Part shown: piece after piece, positions 3,118 to 17,935 of the stretch
Position numbering within the stretch: position 1 is the first letter of the stretch
How the letters are laid out: each line of letters opens with the position of its first letter
Assembly: GCA_000004695.1 (NCBI GenBank)
Contig: CM000150.2
Coordinates: 2,432,001-2,496,000 of the forward strand
Direction: 5' to 3'
DNA length: 64,000 nt
Source of the DNA: Dictyostelium discoideum
Lineage: Eukaryota
Notes under the pieces: generated by a model
Database searches by the model: none
Seen by the model: the letters and a program-made list of their open reading frames with translations, nothing else
What the model was told of the DNA's origin: nothing
Program-made: the position numbers and the translations under genes

Positions 3118-6100
3118 TTTTTTATTTTTTTTATAGATTTTGTCATTCAAATAAATCAATTAAATTAGCAAAGAAATTAATTGATTATGGGGCATATATA
3201 AACCATAAAGATAGTAAACAAGAGACACCATTACATAGAGCTACAATGTTAAATGATAATTATGATTATTTGAAATTATTATTACATCATGGTGCAAATC
3301 CAAATATTGTTAATAAAAGAGGTAGAACATGTCAACACATTTCAATTGAACAGGGTAAGGTTGATTTGTTGGAGTTATTTTTAATGTATGGTGCAGATTT
3401 TAATAAATCGACATCAATGTTACCATCACCAATTGAAATGGCTTATCAATCGGTATTTCCATCAATTAAACAATTCTTTTTAAATAGAGTTTCAACAAGA
3501 GGTGAGAATATTTTAATGATTGAAAAAGCTGTGTTTTTAGGTAAACCAATTTCAAATTTCGTTCAAAATGGTGACTCTTTCACAACTGGTACTTCAACTC
3601 AACTTTATACTGGTAAATTATATATTACAAATTATAGAATAGTTTTTAAAATTGATCAAATTCAAAATAATCAAATAGCTTCACCACAATCTTCAATTTC
3701 AACTCAAACAACATCATCATCAACATCATCACCATTAATTATAATACCATCAATAACTGTAAATAATAATCAACAACTACTACTATCACCATCACCATTA
3801 GCATCACCATCATTTAAACAACAACCACAATTACAATTAAATTCATCAACATTATCAACATCGTCAACAGGTTCTACATCATCAATGGCAACATTAGTAA
3901 ATACTTCCAATACTACCACACCTACCACCAATAATACAATAATTAATAATGATTTTCCATTGCTTGAAGATGAAGAGGAATCAATACCATTATTATCAAT
4001 TTTAAATTTAAGAACTGATGATGATAAGGATAATCAAACTGGTGATTTAGATTCTTCAAATAATAAGGAAAATATAATTGTACCAAATTCTGATCTTAAT
4101 TTTTCACATGAAAATATAGTTGATGATTGTCTAGTTAGCTCAACAATATCATCATCAAATGTACAAAATAATAATAATAACAATAATAATAGTAGTAGTA
4201 GTAGCGGTAGTAATAGTAATCATAATAGTATAACACAAAGTGCATCATCAATTTTAAATACAATAATTCATTTTAATAAAAATATTGGAGGAAGTTTATC
4301 AATTATATCTCACAATAATAATAATAATAATAGTCCAAATAGTAATAATCCAAATAATAATAATCTAAATAATAATAATAATAATCATTTATCAACACCA
4401 CCATTATCACCATCACAATCAAATTCATCATTTATTAACGATAATCAACAACAACAAAAACAAGATATAACAATGAATTATCAATTAATAAATATTGAAA
4501 CAAAAGATTTTAAACAATTTAAATTATATTTTTTATCATTATATGTTAGAGATAAAATTATGGAATTAATAAGTTATCATTATAAAGAGAAAATCGAAAG
4601 ATTAATTAAAGTTGAAAATCAAAATAAATCAATTCAAAAGAAAATAGCGGAAGAACATATTCAAATGCATGATGAATCTAGAATTCAACATATTGATCGT
4701 TATGAAAGTTATGGTGTTTTTGAGGAAAGTACACCATTTTTATTTGCATATCTTTATAAACCAATTTTTAATTTTTCATCATCACAATCACCATCACCAT
4801 CATTATCATCATCATCAAATTTATCAAATTCAGTAATAAGTAATAATAGTTTTAATAATAATCAAAATAATCAAAATAATCAAAATAATAATAATAATTT
4901 TATAAATGGTTGGGAAATTTATAATCAAAAGAAAGAATATTTAAGATTTAATATTAACATTGATGAAAATAATAATAGTAATTGTTATTGGAGAGTGACA
5001 TCAATTAATAAAGAATATAAAATGTGTTCAAGTTATTCAAGTAGTTTAGTTGTTTTATCAAAAACATTGGATAAAGATTTAGAAAAGATATTTTCATTTC
5101 GTAGTAAAGGTCGTATACCATCATTATCATGGAAAGATCCAAATTCAAATGCATCCATTAGTAGATGTAGTCAACCATTGGTTGGTATTGAGAGGTCACG
5201 TTGTCCAGAGGATGAATTATATTGTAGTAATTTAGCATTAAGTGCACCATCTAAAACATTATATCTAATTGATGCTAGACCCAAATTGAATGCCTATGCA
5301 AATACTGCAAACGGTGCTGGCTTTGAAAATATTCATAATTATCCAAATTGTAAATTGGTTTTTATGAATATTCCAAATATACATGTAATTAGAAAAAGTT
5401 TAGAGAAATTAACATCATCAATGAGATCTTCAACTCGTGATAAAGATCATACTGAAAGCACCGATATGAGATGGTGGGGTTGCATTGAAGAAACCGGTTG
5501 GATATCACATATTAAATCAATTTTGGAAGCTGCTACATTCTCTGCCGATTTAATTTTAAAAGGTAATAGTATACTAGTTCATTGTAGTGATGGTTGGGAT
5601 AGAACTCCACAAATTACTTCATTAACTCAAATTCTATTGGACCCCTATTATCGTACTATTGTTGGTTTTCAAGTATTAATAGAGAAGGAGTGGCTTAGTT
5701 TTGGTCATAAATTCTCTTTACGTCTTGGTCATTTACCTGGTAATGAAGAAGAGAGATCTCCAATTTTTCAACAATTTTTAGATTGTTGTTTTCAATTGTG
5801 TAGTCAATTCCCTTTACTTTTCGAATTCACACCAACATTGCTACTCTTTATATCAGATAATATTCATAGTTGTAAATATGGTACTTTCTTAAATAATTGT
5901 GAAAAAGATAGAGTTCAAGATCAAGTTAAATTTAAAACTACTTCAATTTGGTCTGAAGTTCATTTTAATATTCATAAATTTTTAAATCCTTATTATAATC
6001 CTCAAGATATTCAATCAATTAAACCAAAATTATATTCACGTTGTTTAGAACTTTGGAAAGCTTGTTATATGAGAGTTGAATCAAAAGATTTTTGGATGCA

Positions 6101-13905: not shown

Positions 13906-14880
13906 TTATTGATTAGGATTTGAAGGTTCAGTTTCATTTGTAATTGGATTAGTTGTAGTAGGATTTTGTTGATTTGATTGATCAGGGAAAGAAGTTGTTG
14001 ATAAAGTTGATGAGGTTATTGAATCAGTGATTGAATTTGTATTATTTGTATTATTTGAATCGGTGGTTGTTGTTGTTTCACCAGAACCATCAATAATTGG
14101 ATTTAAATTATCTTTATTTTCATTGTTACTATCAATTACTTCCAAGATGAAATTATGATTTGTATAGATACAGATATCAGCTGCAATTTTCATTGATCTT
14201 CTTGCGATTTCTTCAGGATCTAAATCTGGTACGGTTAGGAGGGCACGAGCAGCAGATAATGCAAAATCACCACCACTACCAATTGCGAGGATACCATCGT
14301 TTGGTTCTAAAACGTCACCATTACCATCGATATTTAATGTGATATCTTTATCGGCTACGATTAATGATGCTTCCAATCTTCTATAGTATTTATCAGTTCT
14401 CCATTGTTGTGCTAATTCAACACAACTCTTTAAGAGTAAACCACGATGTTCTGTTAATTTTCTTTCTAATAATTCAAAGAGTGTAAATGCATCTGCAACT
14501 GATCCTGCAAAACCTGCAATGATTTTACCATCTGATAACTTTCTAATCTTTTTTGCATTTGGTTTGACAATCGAGTGACCAAGTGTAACTTGACCATCAC
14601 CAATAATAACAACTTTACCATTTCTTCTAACTGATAAAATTGTAGTTGCTTTCATTCTATATGGATCAGAATGCATTGATCCTGCACCTGCACCAAGACC
14701 CCAATATTGTGGTGGTGGAAGTGGTGCTCCACCTGTATAATATCCACTTGTACCCGAACTTAATTTACTACTTTCAACTACAACATTACTTATATTACTA
14801 TTTCCTAAATTACCAATTATTGGACTTTTTTGTAATGATGGTATTAAATATTTACTTGATAATTTTGAAAAATTAAACAT
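13906..14880 (-). CDS. hslV: HslV (ClpQ) threonine-protease subunit homolog, with an N-terminal extension that looks like a mitochondrial presequence and a low-complexity C-terminal tail
   Basis: The core aligns nearly end-to-end with bacterial HslV: [101 protein letters not shown]...[30 protein letters not shown]...[13 protein letters not shown]. The catalytic Thr would be exposed if the ~75 aa N-terminal extension ([19 protein letters not shown]...MKA) were cleaved. The T/N-rich tail follows. Confidence 0.85.
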
Positions 14881-15180: not shown

Positions 15181-16351
15181 TTAATTTTGTATCTTTGAAA
15201 AATCAATAACAATGCCACTTAGATGGTCAACTAAATTAATTTTAAAATTTGGACACATATTTGGTTGAATATTATAATTATTCCAATCAAAATATAAGAC
15301 ATTTAATCCAGTTGGTTCATTATTTGAATCTAATTCAATTGTTGAGTTTGGAATTAATGGTAATTGATTATCTGATTTAGGTGATAAACAATAATAATAA
15401 CAACCACCACGAGATGAATTTGAACCAATTCCATCAACTAATAAAGCAGTTTTAACACCAAAATTTATCCAATCAAATACTTTTCTTTTACAATAATTTA
15501 ATGAATCACCTTTTGATCTACATTCTAAAATAAAATGATTTGGTATTAACTTTTTAAATTTGATTTTATCATTATCATTTTCATTATAATTATCAGTATC
15601 ATTTTCATTTTCATTATCAGTTTCATAAAAAACTATATCTGGTTTCCTAAAATTTTTATTTTTTTTAGTTTTTAATTTTTATAATAATTAATTATTATTT
15701 TAATTTTTATATTATTTATAAATATAATAAATACCTAATACCAGAAGGAAGTAAATAAAATAAATTTGAATTTAAAATGAATTTACCTTTTAAATTATCT
15801 ATTGAAATTAATGAATTATTTAATTGATTATATAAATCAGAAATTTGAATATTAATATTAAATGAAATTAATCTAATATAAAGAATTGTTTTATTTAATG
15901 TTGTAATATGAAGATCTTTATTATTTGAGATTATTTTTTTAATTGATATTTGATTTGAACTAAAAAATGGTAACAAATTTGAGAAATATATAAAAGTTGA
16001 TGATGGTACTCCAATTAATGTATCATTAACAAATGAATTTCTATTTTCATTGGTTTCATTAAATTTTTTAAATTGTTTATTTGTTATTTTAAATGGTAAA
16101 TTAATTGAATATAAAAGTTTATTAAATTCATCTTCTTTTTCATTTTGTAAAATAATTTTATCATAATCAAAATCATTACTATTATTAATTATTTCATATC
16201 CTTTACTATATTGATTTGAAAAAACTAAAATTAAATTAATTAATAATAATTTTTTTTTTTTTTCATACAAAACAAATAACAAAAGAAATACTTTACAAAA
16301 TTTAATTTTTTTAATTATTCTTTTAAATTTAAATATTATCTTTTTACACAT
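15181..16351 (-). CDS. Hypothetical protein with a Uma2/DUF820-like PD-(D/E)XK nuclease-fold motif. Two exons, about 15736..16351 and 15181..15646.
   Basis: Exon 1 (ORF 15716..16351) ends ...LLPSGIR at a GTATTT donor. A TTTTAG acceptor leads to KPDIVFYETDNEN...LIPNHFILECRSKGDSLNYCKRKVFDWINFGVKTALLVDGIGSNS... This matches the Uma2 pattern P-[DN]-x-x-[IV]-E-[IV]-x-S-x-x-D...K...Y/F...GV.E/A.W/L.VD. The N-terminus looks like a signal/TM segment. Confidence 0.45.
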
Positions 16352-16674: not shown

Positions 16675-16908
16675 TCAATCTCTAACCCTTGAAAAAACAA
16701 CGATGATTACAACCAAGGTTATCATAATTAAGATACAGGCAAAAATTAAAAGACAGTTTTTTTTAATACACAATGATACTGATAATTGCTCTTCTTTTAT
16801 TTCTTTGAAATCGGTTCCACTTTCATTTGAAACATCCAATGAAATTATATCATTTTTGTTTATAACAGTATTATTTTTTTCTTTTTCAATTTCAATAATT
16901 TCACCCAT
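16675..16908 (-). CDS. Small (77 aa) candidate tail-anchored membrane protein
   Basis: ATG at 16908 is preceded by an A-rich leader. The acidic N-terminus is followed by a single C-terminal hydrophobic segment, LLIFACILIMITLVVIIVVF, then SRVRD*. It could be a spurious ORF. Confidence 0.3.
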   Translation of the reverse strand: MGEIIEIEKEKNNTVINKNDIISLDVSNESGTDFKEIKEEQLSVSLCIKKNCLLIFACILIMITLVVIIVVFSRVRD

Positions 16909-17028
16909 TTCCTTTTTTTTTTTTTTTTTTTTTTTTTTTCTTTTTAAGAATTATTTTATTAAAAATTGTTTTTTTTAATTATTTATTAATTGTTTGGTTG
17001 TAATTAAATTTAAATTTTTTATTGACAA

Positions 17029-17139
<111 letters not shown>

Positions 17140-17935
17140 ATTATTATTATTAATATTATTTTAAAAATAAAAATTAAATAATAAAATAAAAAATAAGGAC
17201 AATAAATAAATAAAAAAAAATAAAATAAAATAAAACAAAATAAAAAAAAAAAAAAAAAAAAAAAAAAAGTAGTTTTGAATCTTTTTGAAGGTGATTGGTT
17301 TTTGTGTGAATGGTAATCATTTTTTTTATTTTGTAGAGTTAATTCAAATGGGAGTTATAAAAATATATTTTTTATTATTATTTTTTTTATTTTTATTATT
17401 TTTATTATTTTATTTTATACGAAAGGAATATTAGATGGCAAAAGAAATCAATGATTTTAGTTTGAGTAGGACAATTTGTGTGTTAGAAATGTATAAAAGT
17501 ACAAAAAACTAACACACACACCATGTGTTTTTTTGATTGAAAGATTCAATCACAATTTGAGTTTTAAAAGAAAATCACAAAATATTATGTTTTTATTTTT
17601 ATTTTTTTTTTTTTCTAACCACTTTTACACCCCTAATCAAATAGATTTATCATTATAAAACTGTTCTTTTATTATTTTTTTTATTTTTTTAAAAAATAAA
17701 CAATTTAAATTTTCCTTTCTATACTAATATTATTTCCTTTTTTTTTTATTTATAATTATTTTTTGGAAAAGTCAAACTTAATAGATTAATTATTATTATT
17801 ATAATTATAATTATTATTTTTATTATATTGTTATATTAATTATTTGTTATAATTATATATAAATTAATTTTATTTTAAATTTTAAATTTTTTTTTTATTT
17901 TTATTTTTTTTTTTTTAAAATTATTTTAATTTTAT

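Follow-up and report, generated by a model that had tools for sequence, protein, structure and literature searches.

In a 64-kb stretch of Dictyostelium discoideum DNA (contig CM000150.2, positions 2,432,001 to 2,496,000; the whole stretch is called the window below, and coordinates refer to it) we found a three-exon nuclear gene on the minus strand whose predicted product, as comparisons of sequence profiles show, belongs to the Uma2/COG4636/DUF820 family, with its PD-(D/E)XK fold, and has diverged far from the other members. The ATG of the gene is located at 16351 and its TAA stop codon at 15183..15181. The coding exons (16351..16297, 16224..15735 and 15646..15184) specify 336 amino acids (aa), and the peptide LIPNHFILECRSKGDSLNYCKRKVFDWINFGVKTALLVD is encoded by the minus strand of 15181..16351. 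Taken as a whole, a genuine three-exon gene with a product of this family is the best explanation of the locus, and on the sequence comparisons presented here we consider it highly probable. The Uma2 domain makes up nearly the whole protein after an N-terminal extension of about 55 aa. In the D. discoideum ACTFIT strain (assembly GCA_054883475.1, contig JBTAPE010000039.1) a gene with outer coordinates identical to those of the gene at 15181..16351 is annotated as ACTFIT_007985 (hypothetical protein, 336 aa), and it is to this contig, the only NCBI record matched, that the adjoining HslV-like protein corresponds.

The first-pass annotation of this region had read a Uma2-like PD-(D/E)XK motif directly from the letters, and comparison at the profile level confirmed that the resemblance goes far beyond chance. 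A family profile of nine dictyostelid sequences searched against the PDB matched 1wdj, the structure of TT1808 of Thermus thermophilus, with an E-value of 1.7e-10 and 6okh with an E-value of 9.4e-5. The motifs of the profile and of TT1808 lie in register (KPD with SPD, ExRS with EVRS and K with K). When an alignment of dictyostelid sequences only was compared by hhalign with an alignment of bacterial sequences only (51 bacterial Uma2 proteins), the two were matched over 155 columns with a probability of 99.6% and an E-value of 6.3e-24. In the merged alignment of dictyostelid and bacterial proteins P184, P217, E223, S226, K237 and L251 are invariant in all 117 sequences, and D185 and G245 are nearly invariant. 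Among the best 120 matches listed, 113 were non-dictyostelid, all of them PF05685 proteins of about 190 aa; those named by organism are bacterial and the rest metagenomic.

A word-indexed search returned close orthologs only (from D. discoideum strains and D. citrinum), none of which has a Pfam domain. An exhaustive HMMER search, carried out with a profile of four close orthologs against 1.84 billion representative proteins, returned seven proteins with E-values from 1e-25 to 2e-4, all of them dictyostelid or dictyostelid-like: D. purpureum F0ZKV2, two proteins of Tieghemostelium lacteum, the EukProt entry P0009, a D. discoideum paralog, a malformed D. dimigraforme model and the D. citrinum ortholog. 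All named matches belong to the Dictyosteliaceae or to the Raperosteliaceae genus Tieghemostelium, the one further match being the EukProt entry. Four of the relatives lie above the gathering threshold of Pfam Uma2 (PF05685, 27 bits) as annotated, with 30.9–42.7 bits. The intact paralogs reach 36.8 and 39.8 bits, and the D. purpureum protein, once its gene model is corrected, 50.6 bits.

According to Feder and Bujnicki (2005; PMC551604) the active site of the family is ‘PD-EXX-K’, with the Lys moved onto the adjacent helix; TT1808 carries the variant ‘S-PD-EXR-K’, and practically invariant throughout the family are only the Asp of PD and the Glu of EXX. The window protein follows the PD-EXX-K pattern: PD at 184-185, E223-C-R225 and K237 line up with the residues that are invariant in bacteria as well as with the PD-EXR-K of TT1808. 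Among the four intact orthologs D185, E223, R225, S226 and K237 are all invariant. Neither PTGGESGRR nor FDSSTGF, two motifs of the TT1808 branch, is kept. In the N-terminal part of the domain the family has a conserved His (H43 of all3650; Ser/Thr in the EXR/EXK subgroup); the corresponding segment of the window protein, RLISFNINIQISD, aligns to PTGGESGRR with no residue conserved.

Three traits are specific to the dictyostelid proteins, namely the N-terminal extension, the N/E/D-rich loop of variable length that separates the PD and EXR motifs, and a C-terminal elaboration with conserved C268, P271, (L)PLIP, W303 and P314 that is not present in the bacterial proteins. The loop insertion differs among orthologs by indels of 18, 27 and 45 nucleotides (nt), is absent from bacterial Uma2, and has a predicted local distance difference test score (pLDDT) below 50 at residues 195-201. 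The first 18 aa of the protein contain nine Lys or Arg and no acidic residue (9 K/R and 1 acidic residue in the first 30 aa). With a hydrophobic moment of 1.71 over these 18 aa, compared to 0.81±0.42 for shuffled sequences, the predicted helix is strongly amphipathic. From its composition this basic N-terminal peptide may, though the indication is weak, be an organelle or nuclear targeting signal.

We modelled the protein with AlphaFold. With the 117-sequence alignment as input the model had a predicted TM-score of 0.65 and a pLDDT of 75–88 in the core, and it shows the parts of the TT1808-like fold: an N-terminal subdomain, a PD-(D/E)XK core and a C-terminal beta-hairpin. In a Foldseek search against the PDB the best seven matches were all Uma2/DUF820 proteins (1wdj, 3ot2, 6okh, 9y1l), followed by a cliff to E-values above 0.3.

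Several results weigh against the family assignment or against an active nuclease, and we consider them together. In the comparison with PF05685, a check that the first-pass annotation had proposed, Uma2 is indeed the top Pfam match of the window protein but falls below the threshold (15.2–15.4 bits, E-value 0.014–0.016); its orthologs reach 17.2 and 22.8 bits. The window protein had no match in NCBIfam and none in the PDB by single-sequence phmmer, and no dictyostelid protein matched the PADLOC defence models. From the four close orthologs only, AlphaFold gave a pLDDT of 30 and no usable model. The fold match is not independent of sequence homology, because the alignment behind the structure is dominated by bacterial Uma2. 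The bacterial sample was seeded with TT1808 and 6okh fragments. At the position where the sampled TT1808-like bacteria have an invariant Glu (E33) the window protein has Thr126, the Glu being kept in the paralogs and in T. lacteum. In the literature searched we found no biochemical study of, and no nuclease activity for, any Uma2 protein. One ortholog is broken and a second may be. The one in D. dimigraforme (L014, ~3350-3790) has lost residues ~58-230 including both catalytic half-motifs, and the remnant is frameshifted, uses three frames and contains an internal in-frame stop. The second, in D. cf. discoideum ACTFIY (L013, 1961-3123), shows four frame changes and is annotated as two fragments (P0016 and P0014) next to an intact HslV-like gene; these changes are either real decay or homopolymer errors of the assembly, so that this copy is possibly decayed. 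Finally, the ratio of nonsynonymous to synonymous substitution rates (dN/dS) of the window gene against D. citrinum and D. cf. discoideum is 0.27–0.44, about twice that of the adjacent HslV-like gene (0.15–0.20).

By analogy with what has been proposed for the Uma2 family, the window protein would be a stand-alone PD-EXR-K phosphodiesterase that depends on divalent metal and has nucleic acid as its substrate. Asp185 and Glu223 would serve as ligands of Mg2+, and the task of Lys237 would be to position the attacking water. We judge the case for such a metal-dependent activity to be evenly balanced. Of the competing explanations the one that survives best, possible but in our view somewhat doubtful, is that the protein keeps the Uma2 fold and is no longer a nuclease, either because it has become a nucleic-acid-binding or structural protein or because the gene is drifting to loss. 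The proposed catalytic residues D185, E223, R225, S226 and K237 are all kept, which is not what such a loss of activity would lead one to expect, and dN/dS is well under 1. The gene is under purifying selection, less tight than that on its HslV-like neighbour, and this relaxation fits the non-nuclease explanation. So do the divergence of the window ortholog group, which exceeds that of every other branch of the dictyostelid family, its score under the Pfam threshold, unique among these branches, the two motifs that are not retained, the pseudogene in D. dimigraforme, the frameshifts in ACTFIY and in the paralog of AX4 and the ACTFIT strain, and a relative (P0009) with HSN in place of PD. The replacement of E33 by Thr126 points in the same direction, yet it is a caution and not disqualifying, because only the PD Asp and the EXX Glu count as practically invariant (PMC551604). 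For the same reason we downgraded it as a sign of an inactive enzyme. A more far-reaching version of the nuclease proposal, which we regard as unlikely, holds that the dictyostelid proteins form a domesticated, eukaryote-adapted clade of the ‘selfish’ bacterial Uma2 nucleases with a conserved module of its own (C268..P271..LPLIP..W303..P314), a lineage-specific basic targeting peptide and birth and death of paralogs. This turnover of paralogs would suggest a role in genetic conflict, with foreign or prey DNA, mobile elements or organelle genomes as conceivable targets.

The clade comprises the window gene, the group of the paralog DDB_G0288083, one D. purpureum gene and two T. lacteum genes. 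Each Dictyostelium genome has two diverged paralog groups, and within the 64-kb window the gene is single-copy. The paralog (intact as ACTFIR_001418 and ACTFIU_003651) shares with the window protein the C..P..PLIPNS..W-N..P elaboration and the PD, E-x-R-S and K residues. It differs in that identity is only about 26–28%, the Pfam Uma2 threshold is exceeded (36.8–39.8 bits), the N-terminal Glu is kept and no intron precedes the PD motif. In AX4 and in the ACTFIT strain the paralog is frameshifted after ...PDFYFVSM and truncated, while it is intact elsewhere (323-328 aa, as in ACTFIR and D. citrinum). In the ACTFIT strain (L012, 3001-4346) it is split into models of 183 aa and 103 aa with an (AAT/ATT)n expansion near the C-terminus, and the N-terminal product is identical to AX4 DDB_G0288083.

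The genes of D. purpureum (DICPUDRAFT_152247, F0ZKV2) and T. lacteum (DLAC_00546 and DLAC_07617) belong to the same clade and are located among ordinary eukaryotic genes, with DICPUDRAFT_152247 and DLAC_00546 also having a phase-2 intron immediately before [K/S]-P-[D/E]. In contrast to these likenesses, core identity with the window protein is 24–36% and the genes are not syntenic with it; the T. lacteum proteins carry a Q-rich coiled insertion and the D. purpureum protein has PE in place of PD. UniProt names the relatives of both species ‘Putative restriction endonuclease domain-containing protein’. In the public D. purpureum model (217 aa; L015, 4001-4917, GL871060.1) the donor site is set too early, and about 62 homologous residues are missing that could be read in frame. 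With the model corrected to 279 aa (exon 4001-4398, followed by an intron and an exon starting at 4476) the Uma2 score increases from 30.9 to 50.6 bits. The EukProt entry P0009 (‘gene7608-9357_t’) has H-S-N at the position of the PD motif and, because of this replacement, may be a catalytically dead variant. The annotated 127-aa model P0008 of D. dimigraforme is a chimera of an upstream small open reading frame (ORF) and the frameshifted remnant. From the sequences we infer that the window gene is not essential and that some lineages are in the course of losing it.

The first-pass annotation had called a Uma2 gene unusual in a eukaryote, in agreement with surveys in which the family is given as bacterial, chiefly from cyanobacteria, and as prone to be transferred horizontally (PMC3424549, PMC551604). 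The family has been called a likely ‘solo toxin’ (PMC2701414) and described as a proliferating, horizontally mobile (selfish) element in paralog cassettes (PMC551604, PMC2701414). For the dictyostelid genes we found no sign of mobility, with 1-2 copies per genome and stable synteny, and the behaviour of proliferating cassettes was not encountered. In a bootstrapped distance tree (neighbour joining, unrooted, 184 core columns) of nine dictyostelid and 113 bacterial sequences, the kind of phylogeny that had been suggested at the outset, the dictyostelid sequences were monophyletic in 100 of 100 bootstraps; the window group and the D. purpureum gene were paired in 72 of 100 replicates. The window gene, the D. 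purpureum gene and T. lacteum DLAC_00546 (P0011) all carry the intron ahead of the PD motif at the same position and in the same phase (2). Because this intron is common to three lineages, residence in the eukaryotic genome predates the split between Dictyosteliaceae and Raperosteliaceae. The HslV-like gene adjoins the window gene in five Dictyostelium genomes, and all copies of the clade sit among ordinary eukaryotic genes. No synteny was found with D. purpureum, whose MnmE-like neighbour is unmatched in the window. The earlier description of the gene as ancient and integrated is supported by host-like composition, two spliceosomal introns, synteny, a single clade and the intron common to D. 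purpureum and T. lacteum.

The same description had called the gene horizontally acquired. Transfer from bacteria is the most economical origin, not a proven one; the tree is an unrooted neighbour-joining one and the bacterial sample was seeded, and because of this seeding we name no donor lineage. We find it reasonably likely that there was a single entry by transfer from bacteria into the dictyostelid ancestor, before the Dictyosteliaceae/Raperosteliaceae split. After this entry the gene would have adopted the composition of the host, gained introns and been duplicated. Vertical inheritance of an old eukaryotic or mitochondrial-endosymbiont gene that was lost nearly everywhere except in dictyostelids would need many independent losses. 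It is also at odds with the surveys cited above and with the fact that the reachable relatives among the 1.84 billion representatives are dictyostelid only, and we consider it quite improbable. However, the common intron and the single clade show long residence and not the mode of entry, and at least one fungal Uma2 protein has been reported (Trichophyton rubrum F2SXP0; PMC4102429). The shallow four-ortholog profile missed even bacterial Uma2, so divergent eukaryotic members could escape it, which counts against the transfer from bacteria that we prefer.

To describe the structure of the gene we compared it with its orthologs in D. citrinum (L001) and D. cf. discoideum (L002). The exons are 88–94% identical to both, and all indels are multiples of 3 nt. 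Exon 1 shows 91–95% nucleotide identity with the two species, its 5’ flank 61% in D. citrinum, and it agrees with the gene models P0001 and P0004. Exon 2 is 88–94% identical between species with indels of 9 and 3 nt only, and its product aligns with the N-terminal subdomain of bacterial Uma2 in hhalign as well as in the merged alignment. GC content is 18% in the exons, 3% in intron 2 and about 22% in the window, which is homopolymer-rich.

Intron 2 preserves the frame over its junction (...LLPSGIR/KPDIVFY...) and has a length of 370 nt in D. citrinum, compared to 159 nt in D. cf. discoideum. Because its length varies between species and its GT and AG borders are conserved, it is genuine. The expansion from 88 to 370 nt in D. 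citrinum (L001, 4617-4986) occurred through a long (AAT)n microsatellite. This GTATTT...TTTTAG intron had already been recognized in the first-pass annotation and is upheld by the interspecies alignment; the two-exon structure proposed with it is not, since there is a second intron at 16296..16225. In this strain intron 1 looks like a hydrophobic coding segment because it is a multiple of 3 and stop-free, and reading through it in frame gives CKVFLLLFVLYEKKKKLLLINLILV. Its identity is 62–69% to D. citrinum and D. cf. discoideum, with indels of 2 and 3 nt, and the read-through meets in-frame stop codons in both species. We therefore ruled out a two-exon model with a hydrophobic N-terminus. Of the hydrophobic/basic N-terminal segment described earlier, the basic part MCKKIIFKFKRIIKKIKF is coding and the hydrophobic part belongs to intron 1.

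Four Logan contigs from four sequencing runs (L003-L006) contain the same gene with an intron 2 shorter by 1 nt; the one that was aligned (L003) carries one coding change (ATG to GTG, Met312Val). These differences look like strain polymorphisms. The contigs appear genomic, because both introns are retained and their ends lie at homopolymer tracts, and we ruled them out as transcript evidence. Protein searches returned no AX4 (DDB_G) protein for the window gene, though the AX4 paralog turned up, so that the AX4 reference annotation may lack the gene. Positions of all features are given in the table.

Features of the Uma2-like gene and its downstream neighbour, in window coordinates
Feature	Position	Strand	Description
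Exon 1	16297..16351	-	55 nt; codes for MCKKIIFKFKRIIKKIKF and the first base of the following codon; strongly basic, amphipathic N-terminus
Intron 1	16225..16296	-	72 nt, GTAAAG...TTTTAG; removed by splicing in the source annotation P0001
Exon 2	15735..16224	-	490 nt; lineage-specific N-terminal extension and N-terminal half of the Uma2 domain, to ...LLPSGI(R)
Intron 2	15647..15734	-	88 nt, GTATTT...TTTTAG; phase 2 in codon R182, directly before K-P-D
Exon 3 and stop	15181..15646	-	Catalytic half of the Uma2 domain and dictyostelid-specific C-terminal elaboration (GGCYYYC..P..LPLIPNS..W-N..P)
P184-D185 codons	15637..15642	-	‘PD’ half-motif with the proposed metal-binding Asp; aligns with bacterial invariant P89-D90 and TT1808 SPD
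Insertion ETDNENENDTDNYNENDND	15568..15624	-	Low-complexity, N/E/D-rich; loop between PD strand and EXR strand
E223-C224-R225-S226 codons	15514..15525	-	‘EXR’ half-motif and conserved Ser; aligns with TT1808 EVRS
K237 codon	15481..15483	-	‘Migrated’ putative catalytic Lys on the helix after the EXR strand; aligns with bacterial invariant K134
HslV-like gene	13906-14880	-	Single exon, 324 aa; Proteasome-family domain at residues 77-249 (88 bits)

Upstream of the gene a small ORF of 77 aa (16675-16908, minus strand; MGEIIEIEKE...CIKKNCLLIFACILIMITLVVIIVVFSRVRD) is acidic over its N-terminal half and hydrophobic in a C-terminal segment. With 77-79 aa and a conserved stop position it is found in D. 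discoideum, D. cf. discoideum and D. citrinum; in D. dimigraforme its sequence is conserved through the hydrophobic segment, from where model P0008 splices on. It has no Pfam match and looks like an independent gene for a small tail-anchored membrane protein. This bears on a further explanation of the locus, in which the true start of the Uma2-like protein lies in this ORF (MGEIIEIEKE..., from 16908), spliced into ...FFSNQYSKG and giving the protein an acidic N-terminus. Two NCBI strain annotations use this start (models P0002 and P0003), and a donor (TTG T/GTATTA) together with the common acceptor 16225/16224 keeps the frame. An intron of about 550 nt would be required, however, and exon 1 (MCKKII...) is conserved far above its 5’ flank, as described above. 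The whole upstream ORF, including the part treated as intron, is conserved in the three species with the same stop. Because the full ORF is conserved with its hydrophobic segment and stop, we take it as a separate gene and P0002 and P0003 as fusions. Models with the upstream MGEI... exon (P0002, P0003, P0008) were rejected as the main model, and we regard the upstream start as very unlikely.

That the motif arose by chance in AT-rich, low-complexity coding DNA, or that the gene stems from bacterial contamination or very recent transfer, would fit the weak single-sequence Pfam match, but is practically negligible in view of the E-values for 1wdj and hhalign, the two spliceosomal introns, the exons with 18% GC, the HslV-like synteny in five genomes and the fact that the gene lies within a contig of 3.2 Mb.

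Immediately downstream of the Uma2-like gene lies the HslV-like gene, in all five Dictyostelium genomes examined. Its protein is extended at the N-terminus and ends in a low-complexity tail rich in Thr, Asn and Ser. At 16994-17164 a long trinucleotide repeat of the TTA/TAT type results in artificial poly-Leu and poly-Tyr ORFs and is probably an intergenic microsatellite.

The Uma2/COG4636 family is very large and accounts for up to 2% of the genes in some cyanobacteria. A conserved, spliced and constrained clade in a model eukaryote is a clean case of the long-term retention of a bacterial-type nuclease gene, and D. discoideum, in which knock-outs, localisation and expression can be studied, offers an experimental handle on the Uma2 family. 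If the proteins do form a domesticated clade, D. discoideum would be the first genetically tractable system for determining any Uma2 function. A ‘hypothetical protein’ without Pfam annotation can now be given a family, and public gene models are corrected: the two-exon reading, the upstream exon fused on in the annotations of two strains, and the shortened D. purpureum model. No new type of system is described. Novelty is limited, because UniProt already labels the D. purpureum and T. lacteum relatives automatically as restriction-endonuclease-domain proteins.

Among known systems, TT1808 of T. thermophilus (PDB 1wdj) is comparable to the window protein in its PD-EXR-K variant, with the Lys on the following helix, and in the G-V...L-V-D strand after this helix. 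The differences from TT1808-like Uma2 proteins are considerable: identity is about 16–23%, and the window protein has 336 aa compared to about 190 aa. Its additional parts are the basic, low-complexity N-terminal extension of about 55 aa, the N/E/D-rich loop insertion and the Cys-containing C-terminal insertion GGCYYYC..P..LPLIPNS. It lacks PTGGESGRR and FDSSTGF and is encoded by a spliced eukaryotic gene, of which dictyostelid genomes hold 1-2 copies in contrast to the proliferating cassettes of the family. From the archaeal Holliday-junction resolvases Hjc/Hje and from type II restriction endonucleases, which make up the classical PD-(D/E)XK superfamily, the window protein differs in the position of its Lys, which is located on the next helix and not on the (D/E)XK strand.

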